This document shows, piece by piece, positions 15,375-60,676 of a stretch of 64,000 nt of DNA. A model generated the notes under the pieces. It ran no database searches. It saw only the letters and a list, made by a program, of their open reading frames with translations, and was not told where the DNA came from. How positions within the stretch are numbered: position 1 is the first letter of the stretch; each line of letters begins with the position of its first letter. Source of the stretch: Isurus oxyrinchus. Taxonomy: Eukaryota. Location of the stretch: the NCBI GenBank assembly GCA_026770705.1, contig JANJGN010000034.1:6510001-6574000 (forward strand), in the 5' to 3' direction. Made by a program: the position numbers and the translations under genes.

Positions 15375-15395
15375 AACTTTCAAAGTACCATGACG
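15375..15395 (+). CDS. Microexon, 21 nt, phase 1-1, (E)LSKYHD
   Basis: tgtgttttctatcgtttctgacag|AACTTTCAAAGTACCATGACG|gtaagc; strong acceptor and donor; exactly one heptad. Confidence 0.8.
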
Positions 15396-17065
15396 GTAAG
15401 CTCGGGAACAAGATCATTGCCGTCCTATTTGGAAGAGGATCGAATTTGGAACACGATGAAAATTTGGAACAATGCTAAAGTAATGAATACGTTGAGTGGA
15501 TTTTTGGCTCGGTCAGCAGATACTCGTCTTTGGCTAATGATCAGTGTTGGCAGAATGCCGTTGCCAATCTCCACCCTAAGGTTGAAGTCACATTGCAAGA
15601 TTCCTCCCCTGACACAGAACAAATGTCACGCATTGATTTTTCATGACCTCAAATATTAAAATATCATGTAAATTTGGTGCAGAATGCCACTAATTATTCC
15701 AAAGTGTTCTACTAGCTGTTGGGGAGCGTCAGTGGAGTATGGGTATGCTGGTGATCACTTACCTACTGTAAACTTCAAACGGGATGATTTAAGTTTCAAT
15801 CTGTTACCCAAAAGTTGCAGAACATATATAAGGATTTTATTTTATTTTCAATTTCGTGATCCATTCAGATTTTTGATCCACAGACCAAATATCGTGGAAT
15901 GCATACATTACTTTCTGGTAAATTACATGAAAAAATCACAGTTCACATGGGATTGGAACTCATAACAGGGTTAAATTTTTTGCTACTAGGCATTTCGTAT
16001 TTTCTTCACAGGAGGGGAAGGAATGGTTGCATATAATATATCATAAGAGTTTGAGCTGGTGGGTGCGAATGTTCAAATGAGATCTGGAGAGAAATCGTGA
16101 AAATTATGATAGATGGTTAAACAAGTGACAATGGGGAAATAATGGCACCGGTTCTGAGGTAGATAAATAAAGACAAGGAATAAGAAAATGCCAAGAGCAC
16201 ATCAAACTTTTTAAAACTGAACTGTTCTGTCCAACCAGCAAACCATCTATCGTCAACATCTGACGTGATTGGTGTGAACTATAAATGCAGGGCTTACCAT
16301 GTAGTCGTGCTTCATGCAAAGGAAGGTCAACATTAATGCACGTTTGTGCTATTCTAATTTCGGAATTGCTATATATTCTGATGCCTTCGTGTTCAGTGAT
16401 TTACGGCTGAATAAATGGTTTAAGGGCCTAGATTTGCTGAGGAGCTTAATGCAGCAATTCTCGTCTCAAATGTTTTCTTTTTGTTGTTTTTTTAACCGAC
16501 TTGATAAGGTTGTTTCTTGCATCATGCACCTTCCATACACCTTTTGGCCTTCTTTCCCATCAGTCATAGAATTTATTATCTGTGTGTGCAGGTGTCTCCT
16601 GTCCTCCGTTAACACATCTGTGACACGAATATCAGGCTTCCTTACTTTAAAAACTGTATATACGTTCAATTCTTAACAATACTTGTGTTATTAAATAACT
16701 GCCATCACTGTCTGCAGTCTATTGAAATGAGAATGCAAACTGAGCAGACCGCTTCAAAAAAGCGTTGCTTGGTTAATGGCGTACATAAATCCACAATCTT
16801 CCGATTTAATTCAATAATCTTTTGATTTTTCATCAATTAGTAATGGTGAAGAGTGAAATGCTTAACTGTTTGACATTATATTGCTGTTAAATTACAAGCT
16901 GATGGGTGGAAGCTGCCCTCCTGCACACTTTGTTTGAGATGAGGTGACACAAACCCTTGTCAACTTTGTGGTCGTTTTTTAGATATGGTGTCACTTGGCT
17001 CTGTTAAATGTTTAACTGAAAGGAAAGTTTGCATAACCAATTAATATTTTTTGTTTTCCCTACAG

Positions 17066-17071
17066 AACTAG
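17066..17071 (+). CDS. Microexon, 6 nt, phase 1-1, (E)L
   Basis: attttttgttttccctacag|AACTAG|gtaagt; near-consensus acceptor and donor, same AACT start as sister exons. Confidence 0.75.
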   Translation, partial: N

Positions 17072-17599
17072 GTAAGTTTGAAAATGGTGAGAGAAGAACA
17101 CAGTATATTTTGATACGAAACCTTTAGTCCACGACATGGTTGCCATTGATCGGAGAAAACAATTTTACAGGACAACGTCATTTACAAAGGTGCAGAATCA
17201 TTAACCAGCAGTGCAGCGGCTTAATCTTTGATAGCATCAGGAGTAAGAGACGGAAATAGTTATTAATTCTCCACGAAATATTCCCAGTAACAAAATGACG
17301 GTCGATTGGTTTCAATGCACTGATATCTGGCAAGAAGTGCAAACTGACAGGAAGTGTTTACAAGTGGTGCAGAACCCAGGCAATCATTGAGAAAAAAGTG
17401 TGGAATGAAGAAAGACACTAGCTCTTCTGACATATTCACCAAATTCCACAAGACCTATGGAAAAGAAGTGAAGGTCCAGCAACGGAAATAATACTGTGGT
17501 AATTGCAAATACTTCGCCAGGATGGCCACAACCTTATATGTTTCTTGACAATCGCTCCGCCAAGTTTCATAAATTTTACTCCATAGTGTACAGTATGCG

Positions 17600-18235
17600 T
17601 TCGAGTAACATATGAATTAGTTCTGTTCTATATGATGTTCATTACCATCTTCCAACGATGGAAAACAGGGCAATGACCAGTCTTCACCATTCCCTGCGGT
17701 AGTCCCACCGATGTACCCGAAGGGTCTACTGAAGGACGCCTCGGGAATCCTCGGTAACTGTCGGGAAAGTTTAACTTCCATTGGAAAAGTATCCGCCCAA
17801 ACCTCTGAATCTATGAAAGGAAGCGGGAGACTTTGGAATGTTTCAAATTTTTCATCAGAATAACTATCCAGCAAGTGTTGTAAGGATCAAAACCCTTTTT
17901 CCTTGCGGGAAAAACACTTCGTTAACCAGTTCCACGACTCAGAGCTTAGCCACATAACTAACCAACTAACCACAACCTTCGACCATGTAAGTACACTTCC
18001 GACCAGGACTAACAGCCCCCATGAGAGCTCTTCAAAATCCCAGTGTCCTCCACCAATCTTCAGACAATCAAAGCACTACCTTCTCTGTACACAAGGTCCC
18101 CAAACCATGACATCCCGAGTTGGCCGCAACCCCATATCCCCAGGACACTGGAAACCCTGTCCAACCGCCACTCATCGACAACCACAAATGTCTGACCAGA
18201 CGAGCTCTGAGAAAGGGAAGGGATAGGAAGTGCCC
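17600..18235 (-). mobile_element. Possible L1/Tx1-clade ORF2 C-terminal remnant
   Basis: GC-richer block; minus frames give GMSWFGDLV..EG and DSEVWADTF, reminiscent of fish L1 ORF2 (GI...GDLF; EE.W..I). Weak match from memory. Confidence 0.35.
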
Positions 18236-18339: not shown

Positions 18340-19052
18340 ATCAATATAATATTTTCACCTAGGATTCAAATGGGGAAGTTGAACGAAATGTATTCATCCA
18401 GTTCAGGTTGAGTTGGCAGTTAGGAAGGCATATGCAATTATTTCGATAAGACTTGAATATAAAACCAAGGATGTGCTGCTGAGGCTTTATAAGGCTCTGT
18501 TCAGAGCACATTTAGAATATTGTGAGCAATTTCGAGCCCCGTATCTCAGGAAGGATGTGGTGGCGCAGAAGAAGATGCAGAGGAGGTTCCCGGGAATGAT
18601 CCCAGCAATGAAAGGCTTAACATATGAGGAACGTTTCAGGACTCTGCGTCTATACTCGATGGAGATTAGCAGGATGACGGGGGATCTGTTTGAAACATAC
18701 AGAATACTGAAAGGCCTGCATAGGGTGGAGGTGGGGAAGATATTTACATTTGTAGCAGAGACTAGGACCCGAGGGCACAGCCTCAGAGTAAAGGAAAGAC
18801 CTTGTGCAACTGAGGTGAGGAGAAACCTCTTCAGTCAGAGAGTGGTGATACAATGGAATTCATTGCCACAGAAGGCTGTGGAGCCTTCTGTTTTTAGGAC
18901 AGAGATAGATAGGTTCTTGACTGGTAAGGGGATCAAAGGTTACGGGGAGAAGGCGGGAGAATGGGGTTGAAAAACGTATCAGCTATTATTGAATGGCAGA
19001 GCAGGCTCGATGGGCCAAATGGCCTGATTTCTGCTCCTTTATCTTATGGTCT
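18340..19052 (+). mobile_element. CR1-clade LINE 3' end (best preserved copy; ORF2 C-terminus 18413-18970)
   Basis: LLRLYKALFRAHLEYCEQF, RTRGHSLRVK, VRRNLFSQRVVIQWNSLPQKAVE and GIKGYGEKAGEWG, then 3' UTR ending tcttatggtctt. 5'-truncated. Confidence 0.93.
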
Positions 19053-19079
19053 TACGGTACTATCACGAGGGAAGCTGCA

Positions 19080-24010: not shown

Positions 24011-24203
24011 GGTTGTCACTGCTGCATTTTTGGACTACAAGTTCATGCACTTAACAAGTCCTCAGCCACGCAAATGCCAGGCACCACCCTGCCGCCAATC
24101 CCGCCCCAACAACACAGAAACACAGACACAGTTTCTCTCGTGCACACAGTGGCACATACACATTGGCGTTGCGTACATATTCGTACACATAATTACAAAG
24201 TCA

Positions 24204-24240
24204 CATACACACACACACACACGCACACACACATACACAC
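24204..24240. repeat. Imperfect (CA)n microsatellite
   Basis: catacacacacacacacacgcacacacacatacacac. Confidence 0.9.
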
Positions 24241-24692
24241 AAATAGGCATAAGTACAGACACATGCTCAAATAACAGTTTAAATTTCGGGTACATCTCAA
24301 ATCTATCAGCTTCCTCGCTGTGCACCAGCCATTATAAACACCCTGATGTTTTCCTGGATATAAGACATTTATTTTCTTTGATATAAAAAACAAGTCGCTT
24401 TGAGTGGGGAAGTAGGAGCTTTATCAATATCAAGTTATTGTCATGAGCCATTCCCATGCAAAGACAAAATTGCATGAAACGGGGAATAACATGAACCGCA
24501 ATCACAAAGAAAAGGAAGAGCGAAGAAAATATATAATAATCATAATAATAATATTAATAATAGAATGGCCACAGTTCCCTGTGAATCAAGAAAAGAAGCA
24601 ACGCAGTTCCCTGCTCGAATTGGAATAACACAGGTGTTTTATCGGAATTCATCTTTTCAAGCAAAGTATGAAGCTCTGCTTTTTCGACCTAG

Positions 24693-28881: not shown

Positions 28882-28917
28882 AACTAAAAGACGTTAAAGA
28901 TAAGCTTAAAGCCAAAG
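28882..28917 (+). CDS. Microexon, 36 nt, phase 1-1, (E)LKDVKDKLKAK
   Basis: ttattttcccttttcag|AACTAAAAGACGTTAAAGATAAGCTTAAAGCCAAAG|gtcaga; 21/36 nt identical to exon 45393-45428, with the same donor. Confidence 0.85.
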
Positions 28918-31328: not shown

Positions 31329-31355
31329 CTCATGGTGGAATGCATCCAGATGATG
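31329..31355 (+). CDS. Microexon, 27 nt, phase 1-1, (A)HGGMHPDD
   Basis: atcgatatttcag|CTCATGGTGGAATGCATCCAGATGATG|gtaagt; consensus donor, family-typical length. Confidence 0.7.
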
Positions 31356-34300
31356 GTAAGTAGAATGCTCTTGCCTGTAGTTGACTTGGCAGCAGTTTGG
31401 CACTGGTTCAAGAAATGGGCATTATGAAACACCGAGACTGCTTGCAAACAATGGGTGTTTCATAACTAACGAGTTGCTACTTCGAATATTACATCACACC
31501 CAGGGTAGCAATTCCTGCAGCTACAGAGTTTGAAACTGATAGGAAGAAAGACTTACAAAGCATTTCATAGAACTATCACAAACGTCAGCCTGTCCTTTGG
31601 TCTGTGCTAGTGTGCATGCCCACAGGACCATCCGCAGGCCCTGTTTAATTTATTTTCACTGGAACGTGCATCAATCAATTTCCTTCCATCTGCATATCTG
31701 TTTTTTTTTTCCTTAAGCGACTCAATGTTATTGGTCCCAACTACGACAACAGGGGCTGTCTTCAATATTCAGGCAATTTATTATCCCAGGGCGTTTGCTT
31801 GGGAGAATTCTCTTTTGTGAGGAAAATTATATCGCAATGCTCCCTGAATTTCTATGCGATAATTTTGGCAAATTAAAAGTTAATAGGTTATTTTAATCTT
31901 GTTTCAATGCCACACTACCTTTGAGATCCATATACAATCCTTGAGCGATGTTATGGAGGGCTGACTGCAGCCCACATCCAGGCTCAAGGGCATTTTGAGC
32001 ATTTACGGAGCAGTTCAACTGTTACAATCGTATATCGTTTCACTGCACTCTTAAAGATAGTGGTAGTGTCAGCTCTATCACTCTGCCTGAGACACTAGTT
32101 GAGGGCAGAGTAGATACGTGTTCGAGGTATATGCTTTGTCACCTATTCTCCATTCACAATTTTTGGGGTTGGGGTGAAGGATCAAAACAGGTCAGGTTGA
32201 AGAAGGATGATTGTGATGACTTCTGTTGCCAAGAAAGAACAGGCACCGATAGCCGAGCTAAAATTTGACTCCTCTGAATGGTCAGTCGCTGTGAATTGAT
32301 GGCTCTTTGGTTCCACTCAGTCGTCTATGCACCTTTTGAGTGCTGGTGATGAATAATGTTCCTTGCCACTGTGGGGCCTTTTGGGCCATGAAATAAATTT
32401 ACTGTCCAATTTCAGCAAAGAGGACATCAGTGTCCTACAAGTTGCAGCAGGTTAAAACGACATGCGAAATGGAAAGTAAGTCCGCATCTGATACTTTGAT
32501 GGAACTACCAAGGGGGACGTTAAAGGCAGCTGAAATTTTGGTGGCTGCGGGAAGACATGACTCTCAAGCTACGTTTTGCGAGGCCTTTGGTGATGAGTCC
32601 AAAACTGTGTGTGGCCTGCCTGGAGAGTCAAAAGCTATCTTGGTGCTGGGACATTTAGGGATTTACGTACTTTCGGTGGTGTATCCGTTGGTGAAGCTCT
32701 AACTTCTGCTTCCTCCCTGTCCATCTTACGTCCTGATGCTTAGAGTCCCATCTCTGCTGCGGAGTGTGCTGCTTTACATCACTACTGGTCCCAAAAGCTG
32801 TCAGTGGAGACACAATATTAGGCGTATGCTTCAATTTGGACAAGAAACTGTCCACAGTTTTTTTTGGCAGCCTCGGACTTCCGGTTGATAGCAAGTTCAC
32901 TTCTGAGTGCTGAAGGCCCCCTCCCCCAACACATGAAAAAAACACCTGGGATACCTAATTATCAAATATCCTATCACCCTGTGCCACAAAGCCTCCTATT
33001 GTGTCTGCAGAATTATTGAATCAGCTATGCTTTGTTCCTTGATACATTCTTCTCTATCTCATTTATTTTTATTTTCCCACTCTCCGACTTTTCCCAAAGT
33101 CTCATCAAGCACAACAACTAAAAACGAGATCGTGTAATTTTTTAAAGCATTTTTAGGCTAACATTTCGACTGATTTTGCGGCCTCCCGTCTCCTTGGTTA
33201 AAAAATGCCAATGTTGGAAACAACACCGCCAGAATGTTTGCTGCCACGATTCACATTCCTTGCACATTCCATCCCCATTAATTAATTAGCGTGTAAGAGA
33301 AGCCAGGGTCAAGAATAAACATTATCCTTTGTTTGACCTGGTATCTAATTGCAAGGCCTTCAATAAAGCCAAATAGCGTACGCTGCTATAAGAAGAGCTC
33401 AAATCTACCTCATAGATTTTATTCATTTCACTTTTGATGGCATGGCCATTCACCCACCTTCTGTCGGTTACAGTCTCCCTTTGAAATACTTGCTGCCTAT
33501 TCCTGACACCTTTTAGCCATGAATATAGTTTTCACATCCCTGTAATTCACTGAAAATATAATGCCAGGCAGAACTTTTCAAAGCCTTCATAACAATGGGA
33601 CAGGCTATCACTCTTTTCCGTTGAATGAATTACACATTGAATATTCAGTAGTCGATAACGTAATGGATGGATATTTTTTTGTAGATATAGCAAAGGTTGG
33701 GTTGGTTCCGAAGAGTAGAAAGTTAAGTGTAAGAAATGTATGATGATAACTCACACACCTGACAGGTATTTCGGAATTAATTTCTAGAGAAGTTATATTG
33801 TGGATGATGCTACCATATGGATGGAGGGATGGGATGGGTGCAACTTAGCAAAGGATAAATGAGTACAGGAGTCAGCAAAATTGATTATATTTTTACAGCA
33901 AAATGGGATGAGGCCTCAGTACAACATACATGCCAGCTTCCAACCCTACGGAACATTTTTTTTTTCTCGCAGTTTTGCTTGTTCTGCATGATTGGATGTC
34001 ATTGTCTGCCACAACAAGTTGCTCTGGTTAATTCTAATTATGAATGCATGTGCACTCTGCTCTCTGATCGGGCCCTTTTTCGTACAATTAACTCATCTTG
34101 AAAAATCATACACTTGAAACTTAAGGCAGCCACTAAAAATGCCTTTTGCATATAACAATGAATAATTCCGCAGTCGTTGTCATATAAACATTTTATCCTA
34201 CCGCCTGCAAACATAATTACAGTAGAGGAATTCGTTACCAGCATTAAAAATAATTTTCAGCTTCTAATACATCGATTATTAGTTGTTTTTCTTGTACTCG

Positions 34301-40495: not shown

Positions 40496-40681
40496 AGCAT
40501 ATCTATGGTATATTGATAATTATAATAAATACATTAAATTTGACTTGATAACACGGAACAAAAAATAAGAAGAAAGAAAGATAATATTATGAAAAGTTGC
40601 AAACATTTATATATTAGAAGAATGGAAATAAAACAACTCTACTTACACACTTTACATACCACACTATAATGCAAATATATA

Positions 40682-41028
40682 CCGTTGTTCTTCCAGCGCA
40701 AAGAGTTGTCCCCTACCGAGTGTTGCAGACAGGCACATTCCAAAGTCCAGGACTACTTGCAGAGGGACACATCAAAGCTTGGGGCAGCCGGGAAGGGTCG
40801 CTGCATAAGACCTTTCTGACACAGTGCACCGAGGAGCTTGGAATTGTAAAGAGTCCCTCCGCATGTACAGCTCAAAATGAATGTCTGCCAATGATTCTAA
40901 TATTCATTGTTTGTACTGATACACCTTGTGATTCATGTTGTAAAAGTGGAACCTGATTGTATTTTTGTGATGGTGATTTTAAAATGGTTTCAAATGTTGT
41001 TGAAAATTTATGAATAAAGTATATTTTG
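40682..41028 (+). mobile_element. Tx1-like non-LTR retrotransposon 3' end
   Basis: ttccagcgcaaagagttgtcccctaccgagtgttgcagacaggcacattccaaagtccaggactac translates as FQRKELSPTECCRQAHSKVQDY, resembling an elasmobranch Tx1-like ORF2 end. AATAAA at 41013-41018; flanked by GCAAATATATA at 40671-40681 and 41029-41039. Confidence 0.7.
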
Positions 41029-41029
41029 G

Positions 41030-41032
<3 letters not shown>

Positions 41033-41067
<35 letters not shown>
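41033..41067. repeat. (TA)n microsatellite
   Basis: Pure atatat run. Confidence 0.97.
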
Positions 41068-41068
<1 letters not shown>

Positions 41069-41559
41069 CAAACTACAAATGTTATTCCCAAATTGGTCTG
41101 CTCACAACAACTGCCCAAATTGCGTAATGCCATGAAAGGAACATGACTTTGTAAAATTCCCCTTAGAATATACTTTGCCAATTCTCTGAATAACGATAAA
41201 ATAGGTGGTCCCTACTGTCAGTCACTCCATGCCCAGCACTTCCTGCCACAGTCCCCAGTGGCTGATTCTTCCAAACCAGCAGTATCGCAGAGCCCTAGAG
41301 GCAGCGTCCCTTTCAGCCAGCGTTCTGGCTTCATTCCAGTATTTCGGAGTCTGGCCCACATGTTGTCAAAGCAAATTTCAGTCCTTATCAATTCTGCTCA
41401 TAGTCACTGCAAGGTTAAGTTAACTTCGCAACATGAAGTTGTTTACGAAATTTTGATGTTGTCTTTCCATCTATCATCTGTTACTTGTTACATTTTGTTC
41501 TGTGAGACAGTGCAGAGCCTTGTGCTGATTTTCACACTATCTGTTTTCTTATTTTTATC

Positions 41560-41840
41560 CACTAATAGCACCTTCTTTATCCCTTACCACGGCCACTAAC
41601 ACACGTTTGACATCTGTCGATGCCACCTGTATCAATCTCTCCTTAGACCAAACTATCCCTGACCTTCTATCCAGCTTCACCTGCCCCAAACGCCTTAAAC
41701 AGTATCAATGTAATAAAAATTCTACTTATTTTTAGCTCTGAAGATGTGTCATAAGGACTCGAAACTGTAAATAAATTCCTTTGCCCACAGATGCTGCAAA
41801 ACCTATTGTGTTTTTCTAGCATTTGCTGTTTTTATATTGG
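41560..41840 (+). mobile_element. Penelope-like element terminal fragment (older copy) with CTGAAGA...GAAAC motif
   Basis: agctctgaagatgtgtcataaggactcgaaac...cacagatgctgcaaaacct is homologous to 7208-7342. Confidence 0.7.
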
Positions 41841-42149
41841 AAATAACTCGTATTTTTCAGTGGTTGCAAATATACAGTGTTCTGTCAAAGCATCAAGGCA
41901 GCAGCTGTGAATATGCTGAGTAAGAGGAATATTTGATTAAAAAGTCCAATCAGCAGTTAACAATATTAGTGACAATATAATTTACCAAAAGTCAAACAAC
42001 AATCACATCTGGGTTTAGTCAATGTCTACAAAGAGTGATGTTGAATATTACATAAATGTAAAAATTCAATATAGGGTTAAAAGCAAAAGCACTGCAGGAT
42101 TGAACTGCAAAAGTATAACATTGTAATAACTAGAGACTACAGGCTTTAG

Positions 42150-42690
42150 GAATACAGTATGAGTCCCATGAATGCAGAGTTTCATCCTGATACCCAATTA
42201 CTCCTGTTTTGCTAGGGCTGTTTGGTGACATATTCAATGAATGCGGCTCTGATATCCAGGCCAGTCACTCTCGACTCTCCTCTTGGGTTCAGCTCTATTA
42301 TCCATGTTTGCAGCACGGCTTTTGTGAGGTTAGTGGCACTGGCACAACCGTGCTGAGCGTCACTGAGCAGTTTGTTTCTGACTAAGTGGCGCTAAATAGC
42401 ACTGCCCACGACAATTTCCATCGCTTTGCTGATGATCGGGTGTAGGCTGTTGGGAGGTAATTTTCCAGTTTGGTTTTGTACTGTGCTTTGTCGACAGAAG
42501 GTAACTGGGCAGCTTTCCACATTGCCGATATGTTGCTGTGCTGTGACAGGTTGGCTAATAGTGGAGCTAGGTAAAAAGAGCAAGTACTCAGTACTATTTT
42601 TTAAAATTGGTCAGTTACCCTAGCCTTTGCAATATACAGTGCCTTCATCCGTTCTTGACACATGTGGAGTGAATGGAATTGTCTGAAGAG
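42150..42690 (-). mobile_element. Decayed non-LTR retrotransposon RT fragment (antisense)
   Basis: Minus ORF 42392-42583 contains PNSLHPIISKAMEIVV, matching the RT motif RPISLL.IISK.ME.VV. Confidence 0.7.
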
Positions 42691-45129
42691 ATTATTTGTG
42701 ACATCCATAAATTTTAAAATTGTATTTCAACATCATGCTGGGCTGTTATTTTCTTCCTCGTTCAAATTTCTGTTCTTCCTACACGTCTCTTTATTTAGTT
42801 GCCATTTGTCTTTCTTAGTTTTCTCTTAACGTCGTTTCTTCTCTCTGCATCAGCATCTGCCCTCCCTTTTCGCTAATAAACTCTATTTTCCCTATTTGCT
42901 GATAGCAATGAATCTCCCCGCAAAACATTCTGTCAACCCTTTGTGATTGCAGCTTTTAGCCTTATACAACACTGCCTCCAACAGAGCACATCCACGTTTT
43001 GAGTTGGATGGCAATGTATTACTTTCCACCGATACCATTCCAGCTGCCATGCACGCAAAAAGGAGCGGAATTTAAGATTGTCACCTCTGATGCACTACTA
43101 GTTAATAAGTAAATCCCTCTGTCCTTAAACACGTGTTGCAAGGACGCAACTCGTCCACTAATTTCTTATTCTCTGCCAGAACTGTGGGTTGCTCCAATAC
43201 CACTAGCAGGAATGTGTGCACACATTCAAACCTTTCTGTTTGTCCGCCACGTGCTACACTCTTTAGTATACACTCCACCGTGATGTTTGATGACGTCTGC
43301 TGCATTGTCCCCACAAAACTACAAGAACAACCACCCACACCCAACTCCACAGATATCAGTGTATTTGGTAGTGCTCCACATTTGCGTACACTGCATCCTC
43401 TGGGATGCCATTTCGCTTACCGGTATTGAAAGTTGAATTCCAGTTTATGAGGCCATTCAGTTGTTTGCTGCCTTTCTGTTCTTTCTTTTCAGGGCACAAA
43501 AAGTTTTTTTTTTTAATTTCGAGATCCCGCAATTTGCACATATGACAGCTGTCTTTAGCACTGTTTCTGTATTTTCCTCTCTGGGCCTGTCATTTCTTGT
43601 CATATCCTGCACAGTAAGAAAACTGTTTCTTCAAATCGGTGTCTAGTTCTAAGAATATGTTTCAGTTCCGTCCCCCAGGCTGGGATTCCAAAGAAATGAA
43701 GGCCAGAAATTAGAGTTCAAAATTGTTAACCCTCTATCAGGTCAGCCTCCACTCATCTTCAACCAAGAAAGAGTAACGACTTCCTCATGGAAATAACCTT
43801 TTAGTTCCCAGGTGATGTTATTCCCAATATATGCATGACCCAAGTTTGTGATGCCATCTCCACACCTTAAATACAAATTGTGCTTAAGCAAAATTTCATG
43901 TTTCGATTAGATCGGACAGCATATGTTTTGATTACCTCATGTTTAGTGTGGAACACATGTATCCCTGATGACATAATGGTTGGAGATCTTCTGCAACTTT
44001 ACCACGATAATCACAGCAGTGTTTTCCCAAACACTATACCTATTTTTGGAAGCAAAGGGAGAAAAAAAAAACAAAAGCTTGACGCCTTTAAGTACATTGC
44101 GCCTTTTGATCCGAATTCCCGGTGCCAGAAAGGAGTTGGCAGTCAATAAAATACAATGAATTATCTTCACATTTATAAGTTGAAAAAAACATGAGCTTTT
44201 CTGCGCATAGCTAGTCCCAATAGAAATTGGAGATTGATTAGATCATCTATTTTACCGATGCTGGTTGATTATCTACCTAACTTGCAGGGGACAACTCCCC
44301 CCGACCATTTGAAATATTGCATTGGAAAATTGTCGAACCCGTTGAAAGTGTTGTAAATAGAAATAGTGACGTATCAAATCATCCTAAAAGCAACAACAAC
44401 CGCAGGGCCTTCTTTCTTCAGTGCTGTACAGTCTGGCTATTATGCTCATGCCTTTAGAGTGGCCTTTGAAAGAGTGACAGCTGGCCTCTCACTAAGATGA
44501 TATGAAGCTAATTTATTTCGCTCCTTAAAACACACGGGTTGGAATTCAGTGAAAAATAAACTTTTAGCGGAGTGGGCGGCTTGTATTAGTCAGAAATAAA
44601 TTACATTCATGGGTACAGCTTACTCTATGCAACAAAGGCGGGGTAATTTTCACTTTGGACAATTGTACAGAAGGGCGGGTATTTATGTTGTTGCTGCCAG
44701 CTTCAAAAAGCAAGGAGACAATGCAATTGTATAATAGTCTAAACTTTGGATTTTCCTATTTCATATGATTGCTCGAAATTAAATTTTTGCCCGCACCCAT
44801 TGAGCCACGATTTGACGTGTTGAGCGCTAATGCTTGTTAAGTTGTTAATAGTGCATACATCTTTCCATATCACATTATTAAGATGCTCGCACGAGTCCAT
44901 CTTCATCAGGCATCTATCGGTTTATATTAGCAATGCAATTACTGCGCATAGATTCTAAAACACCACTAACAGTGGTGCCCTCTTTAAGCATGAAACCTTA
45001 AAACCGTTCCCTGTCTGCCTCTTCAGTTCGTTGTAAAATATCCCATAATGTCTTTTAGAATGGGCGCCAAAAGTACTGGCGCAGGTCAATGTTTATCCCA
45101 AAAGGAGAAGCAGTAAAAGATTAAAAAAA

Positions 45130-45270
45130 AACGTTCCTGGTGATTGCCATATTACTGTTTGTGGAATACATCTAAATGCACATTGGCTGCTACCTGGGCT
45201 ATTTCATGATATTTACAATACGTCAACCATCATTCGTTGGCTGTAAAACGGGGATGACCCAACTCATTAA
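45130..45270 (+). mobile_element. Deu-domain SINE (SacSINE1/AmnSINE-like) remnant
   Basis: attactgtttgtggaa...cattggctgc...cattcgttggctgtaaaacg resembles the DeuSINE 3' core. Related antisense remnant near 44190-44490. Confidence 0.5.
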
Positions 45271-45392
45271 ATAAATCAATTCACAAATAAAAGTATGTCG
45301 ATCCAATATATTCTGTGTCCTAATTTGAGTAGTTTGAACTCAGGGACTTCTCATTCGGACAAAGAGTACTAGTGATATCAAATTTATTTCAG

Positions 45393-45428
45393 AACTGAAG
45401 GCGTTGAAAGCAAAGTTGAAGGATGCAG
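45393..45428 (+). CDS. Microexon, 36 nt, phase 1-1, (E)LKALKAKLKDA
   Basis: aaatttatttcag|AACTGAAGGCGTTGAAAGCAAAGTTGAAGGATGCAG|gtcaga; L at positions 2, 5 and 9. Confidence 0.85.
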
Positions 45429-45871
45429 GTCAGATAACCAAAAACAGACAACTTTCCAATATCGTTGACTAATTTTATTAAGATGATGTAAAAGATGATT
45501 CGACATACAGAAGTGCAAGGTCACCTTCTATGATAGCTCGAAATTGGCAACATCAAGTCCCCTTTTTAATGTATACATTTCTTCTTGATATTCTTTTGCA
45601 TTAAGTCAAAGGAGATTTGTCAGGCATTGTAAAACTGACTGGCAAACCAAAATGTGCCAGCGCCCATGATGAATTTAAATGCCGTATTATTTATAATACA
45701 CGTGGGCCATCTACCTGATCCCATTCCTGGTTTAGGGTAGGACTTTCGTTTGTATTTTCCTGATTAATGTAACTTGCATTAAGTAGCATTCTGGGTTGAT
45801 ATGTTGTTTAAGAAAATTGGACGGAAATATTGTCAGGAAACGTGTAAAATTTATTGTTTGTGCTTTAACAG

Positions 45872-45898
45872 AGAAAAGGAGTGATGAAGCACAAGCAG
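45872..45898 (+). CDS. Microexon, 27 nt, phase 1-1, (E)KRSDEAQA
   Basis: ttattgtttgtgctttaacag|AGAAAAGGAGTGATGAAGCACAAGCAG|gtaaat. Confidence 0.85.
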
Positions 45899-46034
45899 GT
45901 AAATGGAAATGAGATGGACGACTAATGGCGAGAATTGTTCAAAAGTCTTGTACAGCTGCGTCAATTGACGACATTTTGAACGTAAGCAATTACCTTTTCA
46001 TCCAATGAACGTTGTTGCCCTGTCTCGTTTACAG

Positions 46035-46061
46035 AAGTCCTTGGAAAATGTAAACTGGATG
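46035..46061 (+). CDS. Microexon, 27 nt, phase 1-1, (E)VLGKCKLD
   Basis: ccctgtctcgtttacag|AAGTCCTTGGAAAATGTAAACTGGATG|gtgagt; 136-nt upstream intron. Confidence 0.85.
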
Positions 46062-47794
46062 GTGAGTTAAAATCATCAGTATGCCAATAATTCACTAAAA
46101 TGCAAAATAGACTGACTCTGCATACATTGCAATTAATGCAAACATCTGCAGCATAAAGTTAAAATGAAACGTGCAATCTTCTCTGAGGCGAATTCCCTTT
46201 ATACCTACATTCCATTTTTGTTGCTTTTATATTGCTTGATGCAAATTGGAATTATCATGTCAAGATATTCTTACTCCAACCATTCAGCAAATACATAACC
46301 ACGACTGCCCTATGGCAGCACATCAATCCCCATGGCGTGCTGTCAAACTACAGCTGTCAGAAGTGACGATATTCTGCAATATCCAAAAAAAGGATTCTTG
46401 ACGGCAGGCCAAGTCGCCATTTTCTCATGCTCAACATTATTGAAATACAGTGTGACAAAGATTTTTTCAGCAATATTACCACATTTCCAATTGCAAAATC
46501 TTGAGTATATGTGTTACACCAAAGTGTAATTAATTAAAAGTTTGCCCCGGTAATGTTCACTTCACTTCTGACCCCGGGGCTATTTGGTGTTGCGGGAATA
46601 GTTGGCATTGTAATAACATTTTTTGAGATATTATTGAAAGAAATCTATATCCCCAAGAAATCGATTGCCTATTCTATCAGGTGAACAGGAAGGATCCAAA
46701 TGCATTTCCGCAATTTAAATAAAACAGTAAAGTGACTTCATGCTTTATAATTTGTCGCTAATGAAATACCACCACTGTTGTGCCACATAACATGCGCAAG
46801 TACAGTGGAGAACTATTGATTGGGCAGCAGTTGCCTACATTTCGCTGCTTCTCCAGCATCAATAGATTTCAAAGGAAACTATGCGGTGTTTGCAGAGGGT
46901 GGCCGATTGTCTGCCAACCCTTCATGCCCCACATGAATTGAAATTAAACCCATTGTCTCCAGGGCATTGTCACCGTTGTAATCTTCCGTTGACAGATCCA
47001 GAAACTACCTGACTTCCAAATAAGCAAGCTGTACCTTTTCCAGCATTTCGAACGTTTTATAGCTGAAAAAATTAGCCTCAAGTCACGAGGCTCAAAATTT
47101 TGGATTTCAAGCCTAAACGCCTCCGCTTCCCTTCTGCGTTTTTCCCAATTTCAAACATGGCTGAACACCGACAATATTTCACCTCTTGCATCTTTTTCTA
47201 TGGCTTCTTTTCACAACTTGTTTGATGATTCTCCTTTAAGCTGATGGGGGAATGAAACATTACATTAAATTTTCAGTGTGATTGTGAGTTCTGATTGATT
47301 TTCAAATGGACTGAAAATGGACAGAGCTCCTGCGCAGTCCCAATGTTATTTTATATATTTTTTTAAACAACTTGTTTCAGTATAACTATCGGAACCAAAG
47401 TCACAAGTTGTCTGTGCCTTACATGCAATGAACCAAGGTTTAGTGAGGTCAAACATCACGACGTTGTTGCACTGGGGCTCGTGCCTTAACTCACAACCTA
47501 ATTTTGCTTGTGTCTTGGACGGGGCAACATTGACCCTCTCAAACATTTGGAAACGTACACATAAGCGTCTCTAGGAGTAATAAGCAGCTTATGTGATTGT
47601 GTTTTGTAAATTATATCATATTGGATGCCCATTATAAAGCTGGCTAATGATGTCTAACGCAAGAAGAAAGAGGTGGCATACTGAATGACCAATATAAGAT
47701 GCATAATTGAACCGGCCATTTGGCATTCGTTTCCTCCTTTTTTGTAATGAAAGTATCAGGTAATCTGATGCACTGAACGACCTTCTCTTTGCAG

Positions 47795-47821
47795 AACAAA
47801 GGTTGATTGATCAACTAGCAG
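47795..47821 (+). CDS. Microexon, 27 nt, phase 1-1, (E)QRLIDQLA
   Basis: ccttctctttgcag|AACAAAGGTTGATTGATCAACTAGCAG|gtaaat. Confidence 0.85.
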
Positions 47822-49403
47822 GTAAATAATTGATATACTTATTATTAATCGAATGGCTTGGGAAGTAGTTATAGTTCGATGTCAATGTTAGCAATACTTT
47901 CAACTTGTTCAATTCACCCATTGTGAAAGCTTGTAAAACCAGCAGGAAAGCTGGATCTCTCAGGGCAAATTTTGAGTATGTGGCCTATGGTCTGACGTGA
48001 ATGGCCTCAATTGCACTTTGGAATATTACACATCTTAAGCTTGTGGAACAAATTCAAACATCTTCCCTAGTCCATCCTGACCCGTTGAAGGTTGTGAAGA
48101 TTTCCTGTGGCAGGGTGAAAAGGAAGGCTTTGCCACAGGGACAAGTTGGCTGCTTGCAGTTGGTGATATTTGCAGGCATCCAACCGATTTACAAATGAGA
48201 GATTGAATGAGATTTTGGCCTGTGTGGTGTGTTCCAGTGGAGGCTACAGCGTTGCTGTTTTTCCTTTAATGTCCCATTAGAAAGGGACTACTTTGTTAGC
48301 TGTCAGCTTGCGGTATTAATGAGGAACATGTTTAACCTGAGGACATGAGATGTTTCAATGTGGGCTAGCAGAGGAAGCTAACCTGATCTATGTTAATGTC
48401 AAGGTCCCAGAAATAATCCTCATGGCATCCCAGGTGTCGATATCGGACATGATTTTGTGCCAGCTCCTGAGCCAGATTAGGCAGCAGTCCACTGCTGGTG
48501 CGTGGACTGGGCGAAGTGTTCGTTGGCCCTGTTACTCCAAGTGCTACCAGGCTTTTCCTTATGCATATAACTCAATCGTGGCTCCGACGTTCTGGAGGCG
48601 ATGACTGTGGGTCAATGTAAAGTAAACAGTGATGTCCCAGCACTTTTCCGTGGGATCTCGGGTGATTGTTGATCCACAGAAGGGGATATGACGATAAGCC
48701 CTCGCTTTCTTGTTATTCAGATGGAAGTCTTAAACAACAGTCTTGAGCGTTTCTGGCTAAGTATTTGTTCGGTGAAGCAGAATTTAAGAAAGATACATCT
48801 GCCCTGAATGTTTTATCCATGCACTGAATTTCTTTATTCTGGAAAACCTTGATTAAATCGTCAGTATCAGCAGATAGTGGCATCGTTGCTGGAGGGCGCT
48901 TATATGTTTCTGGCTAAAATAGCTCGTGAGAGTTTGAGGTAAACACACACTTTTCAGCAACTGCCCATGACACTTCTCGCTCGATTTTCAGCTCGATTGA
49001 AATCAATGCACATGAATATCGTGTGGGGAGCAGAACGAGCGAGGCCTCTGATCCAAATTTTTATTCGCAAACAACAAAAACAAATTTTGCTCCATTGATA
49101 TTTCATCTTGTCAATCAAGTGTTCATTTCGAGCCTCATTACATCCTGATCTCTTGATCTGTACAAATCTTGTTGGTTACTAGAGCGGATTGTTGAACAGG
49201 TTCAGGGCATGAGTTTTAGCAGTGTACTCAACAATTCTGTGCTGGAGAACAAGGCCCAGGCATGAGTGTTAAGCATTTCTCGCATCAATTGCCTTGAATG
49301 GAATAATGTTCCATAATCTGATTTATTTTGCAGAAGCGTATAGTGTATGGCGAAATAAGGTTGCGATCAGATGCATAAAAAACGCTTGTCCTTTCCTTTA
49401 TAG

Positions 49404-49439
49404 AAAATCGCAGGCTCAGAGATGAGCTGAAAGAAAAAG
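49404..49439 (+). CDS. Microexon, 36 nt, phase 1-1, (E)NRRLRDELKEK
   Basis: cttgtcctttcctttatag|AAAATCGCAGGCTCAGAGATGAGCTGAAAGAAAAAG|gttagc. Confidence 0.85.
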
Positions 49440-51044
49440 GTTAGCATCAGAAAATTGATTTCGGTTCAAAGACTCCAACGGATTGCTGTTCCTAATTGTC
49501 CATTGCACTTGTGCCTGTGTCTAATTGAATAATAATAATAACAACAACAATATTTCATTTAATATACTATATGAACTGTCAGTTCGATACTCATTTCTCA
49601 AGGCCTGTAAGGAACGGAAGACTGGGACTAGCTTGCAGCTAATATCTGTGAGGTCATTAGTTAAATGTCTCAGGGGGGTGGGGGCGTGGAAACTATTCTA
49701 ATTGATTGGATACATTTGTTTCAATGTTTGAAACTATTTATTAGCTTTGGAGTATATATCGACCGTTCTACTGGGTGAAAAGTTAGGATAATAAATAACA
49801 AATACAAGAAGAACTCAGTAGAAAAAAATATATTTACAGATAGACTGGTGGTAATGTGGAATCTGTAGTTCAAGAATAAGTAGAATCTTCATGAATATAT
49901 GCTCGTCAGTTAAAAATAATGTGCTGAATATAATTAAATGACTATGGAATTCGAAAAACTAGAGTGTGAGAAGCATCAGATAAACAAAAAGAAACAGAAA
50001 TATGGGGCAAATGACCTGTTTTTGACCCATAACCCTTTTCTGTGTGTAATCCTCGTTTAGAGCTGGTAGATTACACATAGGTTGAGCATATCTCAGCGTA
50101 TCAAAGCCCTTCTTATTGTGTTTATTAATAACATATCATGCATACATAAATTTAAATGTTTCAATTATCCTTAAATTGCTGCATACGTTATTCAGTTTAC
50201 AAAATGCTGGGTAGATGTATTTGGAAATTGTATTGTATAGGGCAACTAAATAAAAATAAATATTTTAATATCCATAAGGGTATAAGGCAAAGAAGCACAC
50301 GCTGTTGAATCTAATGCACATTAATATGACATGGCGGATACACAGCGGCAGATGCTGTACCGCTTATATTGCATATTACCCATTCCTCTTTGTACCATAG
50401 CTCCTGTACTCCTGGTCCGCATTGTTCACTTCCTTGTGCGTGACACGAATATAAACAGATTGCACTAGGTCCTTGTGTTTTCAAATTGATGGAAACAAAC
50501 ACGGCTCTAATAAATTGATAGCCGTCATTTGCTATATAAGAGCAGCCGAGAAGATGATTGAATAATTTCGAAAAAACAGTGATTAGATGCGAGCCCGTTC
50601 CACGCAATTGACAAAGTAATTTGGCAGGTAACCCCATGACACCTACAAACAAGCCAGTAATCAGTGCTCGCCTATAGATAGCAAGGTTGGATCAGCTATG
50701 CTTAACAGCAATTCCGTGCTCTCCCACCGATTGAATTTAATTTACATATGGAAATTCAACAGGTTGTTGAGCCGTCAACCGCATGAAGCTCAGATCAGGA
50801 CTAATGCATTCCAGCTGCCTTCTATTCTGTACATTCTCACGATGCAACGTGTTGGTCAGCTTTGTTCAACATTGGCTGCTGTCGCGCAACAGCACTACTC
50901 TGACAGAAGAGTCACTCCTGCATATGATACAGAAGAGGGCAGCTGGGTAAGACGGTACACACTTTGCCTGCCTTGGTTTGTTTCACATCCCCCAGCCAAC
51001 ACCACACCCACCCCACCCCCACGAACATCGTCCTTTCTGACCAG

Positions 51045-51068
51045 CTAGTCAGCAAACAAAAGTCTACG
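51045..51068 (+). CDS. Candidate microexon, 24 nt, phase 1-1, (A)SQQTKVY
   Basis: tcgtcctttctgaccag|CTAGTCAGCAAACAAAAGTCTACG|gtgagt. Confidence 0.5.
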
Positions 51069-53099
51069 GTGAGTCAACTCCATTTGACTTTCTAAGCATC
51101 TGTCTTCTTTGTATTTAGGTCCACGTTTTCTTTTCGCCGAGGGATGGAGGCCCAGCAGATTGTGATGAATGGCCAGTTCACCGCACAAAAATGTTTTTTT
51201 TTAAGCACCCGACAGCAATCGTGTATGTTGCGCAAACAATGCAGATATCAATGACTTAGTAATCAGTGTGCACTGATGGAATACACAGACTGCATGACCT
51301 GTAAATTCCTGAGGTTTTCTGGGCAAGGGCTGCCAAGGGCAGGTGTACCATTGCAAACCAGGTGACTCGTGAGATGTTTTCTACTGTCATCCATATATTG
51401 ACACATCTTCATCCCTGTGCGGAATGCAACTTAGAGAATCCGATTGATGGAATTTTAGATAGTGCACTCAGGTTGCTACTTAACCATGTTATTTTAATGA
51501 GCTTGGTTACAACAGCTGCACGTGATGATTTATGAATCAAGTGACATACTGCCCGCATTTGTGAAGGCTAGTTGACATAGATTCATCGAATTGTTACAGA
51601 ACAGGTGGACGTTATTTAGCCAATCATGGTTGCACGGACTTTCTGAAATATGTGTTTCGCTTTGTGTCATTCTCCCCGAAACCTGCACATTTTTCCTTTT
51701 ATAATTCCCTTTGAAATGCATTATTGGGCATGGCTGCACTACAATCTCTGATGGTGCATTGCAGATTATGAGTACACACGGCGTGAAAAATAAAGTTTTG
51801 TCTCATGTAGCTATTGCATCTTTTGCCAATTACGTTGAAACTGTGCCCTTTTAGTCCTTAAACTGTTCAGTGTAAAGGTTGTATATTCGGCCTATTTAAT
51901 CTGCCCAGGCATCACGTGATTTGAATGCCTCTATAAAATCATGCACACTGTGAAAATGCTTCACAGTCATCAAGGGATGTGGGAGAGGGTGGTTCTCACC
52001 ATGTATTTTCAACTTCCGAACAGGACTAGTTATGGAAGGGACAATTATTACGATGGTCACATACCAATTTCCGGGTAGCGGGATTCAAAACTGCGATAAG
52101 TTGATGATATTATTAGTGTGACTAGCTGAGAGCAGGAGCTACAGGGGTTATGTAACACTCTAATCAAGTTATCCAGAAATGCAGTCCCTCCGTCAAGGTC
52201 GACATGACAGAGTTGGTGGAAATACATGCAGGAGTCTGAGTAAAAAAAGGTGCACATGTACTGTTATCTTGGATTGCCACTCACAGGAGTTTCAGAAACT
52301 ATCCAAAAGAATACTGGCTAGATTTAACAAAGGCCATGACGTTGGCAACTCATTAAAATATTATGGAACAGCCACATGACTTTGATTATAACAAACCTTC
52401 AACCTCTGCAAGCCCGTGTGCTGCCCATTACAATGCATAGATCCAAAAGCTGGACCATCAAGAAGAGTGATGAGCTACTTGTAATGAAATGTCCCAGACG
52501 CATATAACGTTTGTCATAGACGGTCAAGTGTGAAAACGAGTGTCTACTAGAAAAAGCAGGTGTTGAGAGGAACCTGCTTGAGGCAGTAATACCAAGGAAC
52601 TTCACATAAGTTGTATATGTGCTGCGAATATGGGGGTAATGTATGCGAAATGCAAGTCAATAAATTGTTCACAAGACGACCAGAATTGAATGGAAGGACT
52701 ATATCAGATGGTGATCTGACCTCTCTGTCAGCCAAACAGCGAGGTTAGCGAAGAAAGGTAAACTTTGCCAGAGGAGAAAAATTGCTTATTTTGAGGCCAA
52801 CCTTTGGAAAACGCAAGGATTCGACCTAAGAAAAGATAAGCCTGCCAACACTTCTCAACCTTCTGTTCCCCAATGAACACACGGCCTATTACTCCAAACG
52901 AGTTTCCAATCGAGTTTCTCATCAAAAGAATGATTCTCGCATGTCGTTTCTGCTCTCTTTCTCACGACTTCGCAAATTGTCTGACGTGTGGTGGCCAGAA
53001 ATTAACGTCATGAATTAGTGCAGTGTGAAGCAGGTTTTTATAGAATTTTAAAGCAAATTTCTCTATTACAATATGCTTAGGTTGATTTTTAATGTATTA

Positions 53100-57600: not shown

Positions 57601-57609
57601 TCATAATCG

Positions 57610-58200: not shown

Positions 58201-58245
58201 CTCTGGCTGGCGATCCACTTAACACTCTAATCTTTCATCCAGAGG

Positions 58246-58530
58246 CCGGTGGCATCGTGGTATTGTCACTGCACCAGCATTCCAGAGAAACAGGGTAATC
58301 ATCAATGGACATGATTCCGAATTCCAGCAAGGCAGATGATGAAATTTGAATTTACTTAAAATTTAATTAAGGGACTGGTGAACCAATATGTCATTATTGA
58401 TTTTCATCAACTCAGCTGGTTCGCTAACCTCATTTTAGGGAAGAGGATTCAGGTGTCCTTAACTCTTCTGGCCTTCATGTGATCCTAGAGCCACAGCAAT
58501 GAGCTTATTTCTTAATAGCCCTCTGAAAAA
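58246..58530 (+). mobile_element. tRNA-derived SINE-like element
   Basis: A-box-like ggtggcatcgtggta head, then gaaatttgaattt...ctggttcgctaacctcattttagggaag...ccacagcaatg. A related decayed copy lies at about 61160-61385. Confidence 0.6.
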
Positions 58531-60649
58531 TGTCAAGGAGTGATTCGTAATAGATGCTGAGTGAAACATCTACGCCCAAATCCCATAAATGAATATTTCT
58601 TTTTAAATGTCACTCCCAAAATTAAGACCAAATGCCAAAACAAAACCTTCCTGGAAATTCTCATTTGCCGTGATTCCAGCTGCCTCGCAAGATCGGAAAT
58701 CCTGTGCTGTTCTTACACAAACCTCAGCAATGTCATGTGAAGAGTAGTGGAATTTGCAAATGTGAAGAAATTGTTACCCAAATGTAACACGTGCCCATTC
58801 ATGGCGCTATTAAATCCTCTCTTCAGCAATATATTTAGGACATTGATTCAACTAATCACTTTAATTGATTGCAAAACTTTGTGAACAATTGGCAAAATGC
58901 TGTGTTTGTTCGAAATTTTAAACAGAAACAGAAAATGCTCGGAAAACTCAATACATCCAACAGCATCTGTGTTGCCTTTTTCCTGGAATTCCAGCTTTGT
59001 TCCCTTTCGACTTCCTCTGTTTCGCTGATGCATTCATCTACTAACAATGATAGCAATGTTTAATTTCCCAGCTCCTAACCTGAATGAATGTCCGAAATTT
59101 CACAGAGAAAGGAGGAAAAGATGAAAAGAATCGCCAAAGAACGTTTCACTTCTTTCAATGTTACGCCTATCTTTCTTTGTCTTTTATTCTATATAATGCA
59201 CTCCATTAGCTCTGAGCCCATGCACTTACCCATCTAGTTGCTTAATACCGGCATCTGGTGTCACTTTGATCCACCTCACAGTCCCACACTTTGTCCATTC
59301 CTCTGGCCTTGTTTTTGCTGTTGTTGTTGTTGTTGTTACCATTTACATTTTGTCATAACCTCTTTTCTATTAATTATATCTTCCTCATCTAAAACGTATT
59401 CTTTGATAGGGTACTGATGTCATGTTTGCCAAATTATAAAGTTGATTCCAATACTTTTAGTGTTAGCAGTAACTGACAACATTGCAAGTTGATTTATCTT
59501 GCATCAACATATCATTAAAGTAGATTATCTTTAAAAAAAAATCTGGAATCTGGCCGGACGTGCATCCTCCAGTAGCCACACTTCCCTCATGCTACAACCC
59601 AATCCCCCAGTGCACCTCCGTTCTAGCTCCTCGACAATTAAGACATTGAGTGTTCGTCTTGACCTAAATTTTTTTTCATTTATTCTCCAAATATGTTGCT
59701 CTGCCCTCGACAATGTCATCGCTCAGGGTTTTCCTCCTGTATATACGCTGAAGCTATATGACATCAGTAAATGGGAGAAAATTCCAGATAGTGAAGGCTC
59801 CAGAATCAAACCCTTTTTAACCTGAAGCGGATGTCAAAGTGTTCGAGTCATGGCTCGACATAGTTGACCTTATGCATTATGTTTTCAAGGGAAGGGGAGA
59901 TATAAATGAAAAGCCATTCTTGAAAGGCAATTATTTTCCACAGCTTATATAGACCACATCTGATCGAATTATCTCTAGTGATCAATGAAGAAAATATTTA
60001 GTGGTATGCAGCTGTCAGGTGGTGAATGACATTCCATTTCTAGGCACTCCAGTCATAAACCCAGTCTGGGATCCTGGATAGTTGCTATGGCAAAGATATA
60101 ATGAGCAAATGTCTTTTCCACAAGGCACAGAAGAGAAACAGTACAATAGCTTTTGCCATCGCTGTCGTCGGTTTATTCTTATTATGGGACATAATTCTTT
60201 CACCATGGCTTATACCGGACGCTTCCCAAATCTTCCTGCAGATCACTTGCAGCGCTGACACCCCATACTTTATGAGTTCACGTGCTGCTTCTTCTTTACC
60301 TGGAGATTGACGGAATATCAGTATTTTTTTTAATTTGATACAGTTTCAAATATTCAAGACCTGACCTTTGAAGATGCTGACAGACACTATTGTGACTGAG
60401 CAATAAACATTGTAACAGCACTACTCTCCCCTCTTGAATGCAATGAAAATGTAGATTGATGGGCTGCGAAATCCACCATCCCCTGTTTGACACTCTGATG
60501 ACACGCAGAGAATGGTATTTCCTTTTAAACTTGTTACATCAATGATGTTATAACAATGGCATGGCTTAAATGGATTAGACTCTGCAGAGATGGCTCTCAA
60601 ATGCACAGAGTTTATGGCTGATATATTTACTGCTTGTTATTGATTACAG

Positions 60650-60676
60650 ACGGCAAGATGAAAGCGAAAGATGAAG
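60650..60676 (+). CDS. Microexon, 27 nt, phase 1-1, (D)GKMKAKDE
   Basis: ttactgcttgttattgattacag|ACGGCAAGATGAAAGCGAAAGATGAAG|gtaatg; family-typical length and charged content. Confidence 0.75.

Follow-up and report, generated by a model that had tools for sequence, protein, structure and literature searches.

In-frame microexons of an Isurus oxyrinchus locus probably belong to a megabase-scale coiled-coil gene with a B30.2 end

Results

Microexons of the window

The stretch analyzed here, referred to as the window, comprises 64,000 nucleotides of Isurus oxyrinchus DNA (contig JANJGN010000034.1, positions 6510001-6574000). Plain numbers are window positions, and coordinates prefixed C34 are positions on the contig. 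The window lies inside a gene designated G3, of which it represents 6%, all internal; the putative G3 first exon lies ~56 kb 5' of the window and an intact B30.2 terminal exon ~922 kb 3' of it. The window is probably an internal piece of this ~1.04-Mb gene, itself a duplicate of the neighboring gene G2, and its microexons would be serially spliced into a long coiled-coil rod with a terminal B30.2/SPRY domain. The features concerned are listed below, where the paralog is the G2 copy.

1-64000, plus strand: whole window, inside G3 (C34 about 6.454-7.497 Mb)
5213-5233, plus strand: 21-nt phase-1 microexon, one heptad ELKQRND; paralog intact with identical peptide; independent score 12.4; absent from the earlier list
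15375-15395, plus strand: 21-nt phase-1 microexon ELSKYHD; paralog intact at C34:5226893
17066-17086, plus strand: 21-nt microexon ELGKFEN; 21-nt form intact in the paralog
18409-19058, no strand: junction of a 205-kb block missing here and present in the paralog (C34:5229930-5435301), seen as an alignment jump
28882-28917, plus strand: 36-nt microexon ELKDVKDKLKAK; paralog intact with identical peptide
31329-31355, plus strand: 27-nt microexon AHGGMHPDD, Gly/Pro-containing, likely a hinge; paralog intact; acceptor score weak
34750-34776, plus strand: 27-nt microexon EIQRLLQKK, A-ending; paralog intact; absent from the earlier list
36830-36856, plus strand: 27-nt microexon VETLVENEK; paralog intact
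37918-37953, plus strand: 36-nt microexon ELKRCERQREAN; paralog intact
38859-38885, plus strand: 27-nt microexon GEALEKCEK; paralog intact
45393-45428, plus strand: 36-nt microexon ELKALKAKLKDA; paralog intact; independent score 37.4
45872-45898, plus strand: 27-nt microexon EKRSDEAQA; paralog intact
46035-46061, plus strand: 27-nt microexon EVLGKCKLD; paralog intact
47795-47821, plus strand: 27-nt microexon EQRLIDQLA; paralog intact with identical peptide
49404-49439, plus strand: 36-nt microexon ENRRLRDELKEK; paralog intact
51045-51068, plus strand: probable 24-nt microexon ASQQTKVY (uncertain); the aligned paralog sequence is open over 30 nt and its donor is weak
60650-60676, plus strand: 27-nt microexon DGKMKAKDE; paralog intact

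From their sequence these microexons look real. In the paralog, 1.1-1.3 Mb upstream, fifteen of the window's phase-1 exons (21, 27 or 36 nt long) are intact. The preliminary description of this DNA had listed 14 plus-strand segments between 15375 and 60676, and generic splice-site scans recover 13 segments matching this description, amounting to 360 of 375 nt; the 14th, expected to be 15 nt long, was not confirmed, and the stand-alone 15-nt candidates at 24693 (no AG in the paralog) and 42314 (in-frame stop) were rejected. Among those recovered are all eleven G-ending segments of 27 or 36 nt (28882 to 60650), together with 15375 (21 nt) and 17066 (6 nt). The AG, the GT, the length and the open phase-1 frame of the eleven and of 15375 are preserved in the paralog. 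The 6-nt exon at 17066 does not hold in that form, since its paralog counterpart is 21 nt long and the 6-nt donor is exclusive to this copy. This strong donor, after base 17071, would cut the 21-nt exon to an in-frame 6-nt form (17066-17071). The claim that every segment ends in G overlooked two A-ending exons (5213 and 34750); across the fetched part of G3, 74 of 81 exon calls are G-ending. The coding fraction of the window is 0.7%, in line with the earlier estimate of under 1%.

Candidates at 18903, 24693, 26771, 42314, 42550, 52740 and 55801 were rejected because they fail in, or are not alignable to, the paralog; the doubtful 18903-18923 candidate sits within a repeat piece at the 18409-19058 junction. 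No tandem repeat, direct repeat or long open reading frame (ORF) in the window accounts for the segments.

A length-specific profile was trained on 64 exons from outside the G2/G3 pair, and its independence is partial because these exons were chosen by a first profile seeded partly from that pair. The preliminary description had allowed that an equally large set of candidates might appear on the minus strand or in shuffled sequence. Such a set does not appear: at a score of at least 12, the window holds 12 calls on the plus strand and one on the minus strand, against a mean of 0.43 (maximum 3) in 100 local dinucleotide shuffles, and at a score of at least 16 the counts are 10, 0 and a shuffle mean of 0.02. 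The contrast persists over 424 kb, with 82 calls vs 2. Exon calls are likewise strand-specific in held-out samples, switching to the minus strand below 3.98 Mb of C34. Finally, window exons are 88.4% identical to the paralog (447 nt) vs 81.1% elsewhere (p=2e-5).

A gene of about one megabase ending in a B30.2 exon

Pattern searches and fetched stretches place plus-strand microexons from ~4.01 to 7.496 Mb of C34 and minus-strand ones below 3.98 Mb. A genome search identifies five B30.2 exons of the same type on C34, at 2.709 and 3.474 Mb on the minus strand and at 4.817, 6.396 and 7.496 Mb on the plus strand; G1, G2 and G3 denote the plus-strand genes that end at the latter three, respectively. 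The next two closest B30.2 exons lie on C21, beside a second microexon array. The G3 terminal exon at 7.496 Mb is an intact SPRY/B30.2 exon of 173 codons (SPRY E=3e-12) without a match to Pfam PRY, and the closest solved structure to this head is the BTN3A1 B30.2 domain (E=6e-20). Two AATAAA signals follow about 655 and 675 nt past the stop in G2 and G3 alike, and a 27-nt Trp-bearing exon stands 5' of the B30.2 exon. A 27-nt exon before B30.2 is common to BTN and TRIM genes.

The G3 sequence read comprises 418 kb of continuous DNA and about 45 kb of samples out of ~1.04 Mb. The first 10 of its 81 exon calls (including the doubtful 18903) are 21 nt long and the rest are 27 or 36 nt, and extrapolation from exon density gives 197-237 exons over 1.04 Mb, or about 2,000-2,400 residues. 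The earlier proposal of an exon-array gene of a cartilaginous fish therefore stands as regards a microexon-built coiled-coil gene of butyrophilin/BG-like layout, and was too small in scope: the gene measures ~1 Mb, is estimated at 200+ exons and terminates in B30.2.

Searches for further domains covered 83 tested of 140 ORFs of at least 85 aa (from the G1/G-1 head, the G3 front and other 5' samples, with the G2 front and ~580 kb of G3 outside this set). These 83 gave no Pfam match to an immunoglobulin (Ig) domain, and neither RING nor B-box was found in them or in seven gene models of relatives; the single IgV exon close to G3 is a disrupted copy derived from the adjacent gene. No transmembrane segment was recognized among the large-exon candidates of the fetched regions; an N-terminal signal anchor is possible. 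A genome-wide V-set search gave no match in the cluster among the 150 scored of 3319 candidates, and is uninformative since it also missed an intact Ig V (IgV) exon at 7.514 Mb.

Derivation of G3 from G2

G3 is colinear with G2 at ~81% identity in aligned columns and is evidently a tandem duplicate of this upstream neighbor. At the front (6.4337-6.4558 Mb), G3 carries a copy, 78% identical, of the G2 upstream region (4.828-4.850 Mb), joined directly to the equivalent of G2 5.091 Mb. Missing from this front are 241 kb of G2, in which a 111-nt exon is accompanied by at least 37 microexon calls; because G1 has homologs of the first four missing exons, the difference represents a loss in G3. The second missing block, of 205 kb, has its junction in the window at 18409-19058, and 21 calls fall in the 95 kb read of this G2 block. 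A ~650-nt piece of an interspersed repeat occupies the junction; the repeat is present in 16 fetched sequences but missing at both breakpoints of the paralog. The piece has no Pfam match and is presumably a CR1-LINE. Its absence from both G2 breakpoints suggests that the 205 kb may have been deleted during LINE insertion. A third G2/G3 difference, of about 60 kb, seems to lie directly upstream of the window. Uniform exon phase allows rod length to change by deletion or duplication of whole blocks, as the locus shows, and modular same-phase exons thus appear to have permitted in-frame length change during evolution.

G2-G3 identity climbs from 81.6% at the front to 87-89% near the B30.2 end (C34 7.47-7.50 vs 6.37-6.40 Mb), and this rise may reflect later gene conversion.

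Selection on the duplicate

Exon calls were compared in both directions between the two copies. Of 123 G2 calls, 65 are unaligned in the fetched DNA and 56 of the 58 testable ones are intact in G3; of 70 G3 calls, 15 are unaligned and all 55 others are intact in G2. Intronic AG..GT decoys are intact in 347/1148 and 334/1186 cases. If G3 alone were neutral, about 55% of the exons would be expected to be intact (p=8e-13 against). The ratio of nonsynonymous to synonymous substitution (dN/dS) is 0.46 for the exons (60 pairs; bootstrap 0.35-0.64), and B30.2 gives a value of 0.47. An internal neutral control is provided by the duplicated IgV exon that lies between G2 and G3, which has acquired a stop and two 1-nt deletions. 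Splice sites and codons thus appear to have been under purifying selection since the G2/G3 duplication.

Rod anatomy

Across 26 adjacent 36+27 pairs, positions 2, 5, 9, 16 and 19 are the most often hydrophobic (0.62-0.96) and position 12 seldom is (0.15); in 21-nt exons the maxima are at 2 and 5. We infer that a 36+27 pair encodes a three-heptad unit and a 21-nt exon a single heptad. The same core slot holds 28 of the 33 cysteines, namely position 5 where an exon encodes 7 or 12 residues and position 7 where it encodes 9, and some exons containing Gly or Pro likely form hinges. Loss of a single 27- or 36-nt exon keeps the reading frame and moves the heptad register by two residues, whereas loss of 21 or 63 nt keeps the register. 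Coiled coils tolerate a two-residue register shift poorly. A lone 27- or 36-nt skip is for this reason frame-neutral and not structure-neutral.

The 5' end

A donor conserved in G1, G2 and G3 (3998627, 4848606 and 6454049) marks a putative non-coding first exon, and CpG profiles reveal no CpG island at any 5' end. G1 and G2 share the 111-nt exon, whose start, AV(I/M)LA, looks like the latter part (second half) of a signal peptide. G3 lacks it; the first intact G3 microexon, at 6459146, contains an in-frame Met and is preceded by an exon copy that has lost its acceptor. With the 111-nt exon lost, G3 may start at this Met. Transcription from the inherited 22 kb of the G2 upstream region is most likely, held with roughly even confidence.

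A hydrophobic-looking block common to the G1, G2 and G3 upstream regions was rejected as a leader because it reads best as a minus-strand exon remnant. A homologous upstream block (C34 ~3994600, ~4833630 and ~6439500) carries a minus-strand donor and an Asp/Tyr-rich frame, and is possibly the exon remnant of another gene.

Discussion

Proposed product and alternative readings

How would G3 be read? In the reading we consider probable, roughly 200-240 predicted microexons would be spliced in series into one mRNA, perhaps beginning with the conserved donor (6454049) spliced to the microexon at 6459146 with its in-frame Met start. The chains would pair in parallel with Leu and Cys at the core, giving a rod of ~2,000 residues and about 300 nm. 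Such pairing would make the rod a spacer that multimerizes the B30.2 heads and keeps them at a distance. Each head would probably bind a partner, with the rod serving as a long-reach tether, as butyrophilin/BG heptad tails do on a small scale.

Several observations weigh against this reading. No transcript joining any two microexons was found among contigs of same-species sequencing runs, where contigs of four runs on window 33000-52000 and of four on the B30.2 region covered only repeat-like stretches and no exon joints, a result that says nothing on expression. Because ~580 kb of G3 are unread, the exon count is extrapolated and some larger exons are possible. Leader-exon searches in G1, G2 and G3 yielded no conserved candidate for the first coding exon, and putative exon 1 is conserved between G2 and G3 no better than its flanks (0.76-0.84 vs ~0.81). 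A dN/dS near 0.5 points to moderate constraint only, and the tree places the G2-G3 B30.2 divergence on the G3 branch, with codon-by-codon polarity mostly ambiguous. Both exon losses found are in G3 (copies of G2 5091461 and 5533876). Finally, of 28 Cys sites in G2/G3, 24 are in both, 3 in G2 only and 1 in G3 only, and this retention would not favor a shift of G3 to the cytosol.

One alternative hypothesis is that G3 is an alternative 3' arm of G2, in which skipping of the G2 B30.2 exon produces a ~2.6-Mb unit with more than 500 exons and two alternative heads. Phase and strand are uniform across the exons, G3 lacks G2's 111-nt exon and first microexons, and Cys retention is expected if the product keeps its compartment. 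This arrangement is nevertheless unlikely, given the intact G2 terminal exon with its two AATAAA signals, the intervening broken IgV exon with intact splice sites that would need skipping, and the G3 gene's own copy of the G2 upstream region. A chimera seems comparably improbable, in which the duplication placed the promoter and signal-peptide exon of the neighboring PVR/TIGIT-like receptor gene ahead of the rod and this phase-1 leader is spliced to G3 microexons, resulting in a secreted rod with the expression pattern of the receptor gene. The leader copy at C34:6421428 still has its ATG, a GTAAGT donor and a hydrophobic reading frame without stops, in contrast to the broken IgV exon that follows it. 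Leader and promoter are nevertheless conserved no better than flanking DNA (0.88 vs 0.82-0.89), a 49-nt exon could survive by chance, and the broken IgV exon would again need skipping. Quite unlikely in our estimate is the most far-reaching version, wherein G2 and G3 together form one ~2.6-Mb unit of more than 500 microexons with two B30.2 ends and encode secreted, disulfide-linked rods of about half or nearly one micrometer, their length set by terminal-exon choice and skipping. If true, this would be a length-adjustable B30.2 tether not known in other vertebrates, with an exon count above that of titin, which has 363 exons.

The preliminary description also suggested that regulated combinatorial splicing tunes rod length or partner choice. 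The symmetric exon phase, the additional in-frame donor at 17071 and isoform models of catshark, ray and chimaera relatives that differ by single 9-residue units are consistent with this view, as is the heptad-lacking isoform reported for macaque BTN3A (PMC6790196). Symmetry, however, follows from an exon-duplication origin, single 27- or 36-nt skips would move the heptad register, and the isoform models are automatic and may stem from failure to map tiny exons, so that such regulation is doubtful. Is G3 instead a truncated pseudogene whose exons are relics? Loss of the normal front end and the two exon losses noted above point in that direction, yet 56 of 58 exons are intact against a neutral expectation of about 55%, the B30.2 frame and poly(A) signals are intact, and the adjacent IgV copy has decayed. 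These results leave room for a very recent death only, and we consider a pseudogene highly improbable.

Relatives in cartilaginous fish

By a full-library search, the same B30.2 head also occurs in sharks, rays, skate and chimaera. A tree of 26 hand-picked rows (four genomic exons and 22 database proteins) groups 14 rows, with chimaera, skate, ray and shark sequences, in a B30.2 clade with 100/99 support, and true TRIM and BTN heads lie outside it. Word-index protein searches were weak, returning one TRIM25-like match, none, and two chimaera models. Relative models combining a coiled coil with B30.2 include the following.

XP_042192744.1: chimaera, 'nuclear-pore anchor-like', 1697 aa
XP_055510696.1: skate
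XP_038672306.1: catshark
XP_069775384.1: ray

These chondrichthyan models share the B30.2 clade, being represented in the tree directly or by members of the same sequence cluster, and the modular 9/12-residue units, and thus belong to the family of G3; they are unstudied, automatically named and mostly far shorter than G3. Pfam recognizes SPRY only in seven of seven, and none of the seven has an internal 19-residue hydropathy above 1.1 indicative of a transmembrane segment. Their names, TRIM-like or nuclear-pore anchor-like, bear out the earlier expectation that such genes are mis-annotated. The same description called the gene lineage-specific, which is too narrow for the family: the B30.2 subfamily and its units are widespread in cartilaginous fish, being common to chimaera, skate, ray and sharks, though the G3 copy is a recent duplicate.

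In 3 of 8 pairwise comparisons (catshark, ray, chimaera), the isoform models are set apart by a single 9-residue unit, in keeping with occasional exon skipping. Two chimaera models are distinguished chiefly by units of 9 and 12 residues, the majority of them beginning with D, E or G. Both kinds of difference suggest that the microexon design is old. A hydrophobic, signal-like start is present in three of seven relative models, and in two of these it is followed by AVL, as at the beginning of the 111-nt exon; its probable equivalent is in part lost from G3. Such starts hint that the family is secreted or anchored, and could be an annotation artifact.

Comparison with known systems

Guinea-pig enterophilins combine a coiled coil with B30.2 and are far shorter, and the secreted B30.2 proteins ohanin/vespryn are extracellular without a long rod. 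TRIM proteins of the PRY-SPRY type share the coiled coil and B30.2, whereas no RING or B-box was found here in the ORFs and models tested. As described in PMC6790196 and PMC4046983, a few short heptad exons precede the terminal B30.2 exon of butyrophilins. G3 shares this order, and BTN3A1 is its closest solved head; G3 differs in that no IgV, IgC or transmembrane part was found, in having about 200 exons and not a few, and in its 36/27-nt three-heptad unit, core Cys and separate B30.2 clade. Chicken BG genes, as described in PMC4046983, each contain 13-36 one-heptad 21-nt exons together with Ig-V, transmembrane and 3'UTR exons, lack B30.2, and expand and contract as tandem paralogs. BG and a soluble zipper protein share with G3 a coiled coil from many 21-nt heptad exons and the tandem paralogs, whereas G3 adds B30.2, a megabase span and about six to ten times more exons, with no Ig or membrane part found. 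By architecture, G3 appears to resemble a greatly lengthened butyrophilin/BG tail but to fall outside the BTN, BG and TRIM families. No description of a chondrichthyan microexon coiled-coil B30.2 family was found in the literature searched, which covered few subscription journals and no supplements, and the accessible part of PMC12841164 contains nothing on it.

What appears new is the derivation of G3 from G2, its deletions and its continued selection, in a heptad-exon/B30.2 layout that extends BTN/BG tails to an extreme scale. If spliced as predicted, G3 would be among the most exon-rich vertebrate genes, with nearly all exons of 21-36 nt and hidden from normal annotation. It would offer a natural test of how the spliceosome orders hundreds of microexons and of whether it is evolution or regulation that same-phase modularity serves, and it would be a direct evolutionary example, with about 450 kb lost in two blocks and selection maintained. 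With its B30.2 head at the end of a ~300-nm rod, possibly extracellular, such a protein would put the butyrophilin/TRIM recognition domain to a new use.

Other features of the region

The C21 array (C21:89.70-90.0 Mb and 91.35 Mb) shows recent internal tandem duplication of its 36-nt exons, is accompanied by the two same-type B30.2 exons, and lies within a 35-Mb cluster with more than 130 B30.2 matches. On the minus strand of C34, ~2.71-3.98 Mb, are two further microexon/B30.2 genes, head-to-head with G1, for which first exons were not found; an inverted repeat between the head-to-head genes was rejected as a first exon, being an old LINE-like piece. Among G1's 21-nt exons are 45-48-nt exons containing His and Trp (C34:4108038, 4115370 and 4119054), unlike heptad exons.

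Upstream of G3, C34:6421428-6424700 holds a partial duplicate of the receptor gene that follows G3; its leader exon is open and its IgV exon broken, and no transmembrane exon was found. Right after G3, C34:7510720-7526600 holds an apparently intact single-IgV receptor gene of the PVR/nectin family in a TIGIT/PVRIG-like layout, with a leader, an IgV exon, a transmembrane exon and a tail bearing the ITIM-like motifs VEYAVL and TVYAVV. Within the window, GT, CA and AT microsatellites occur at 707-745, 24202-24241 and 41033-41067.

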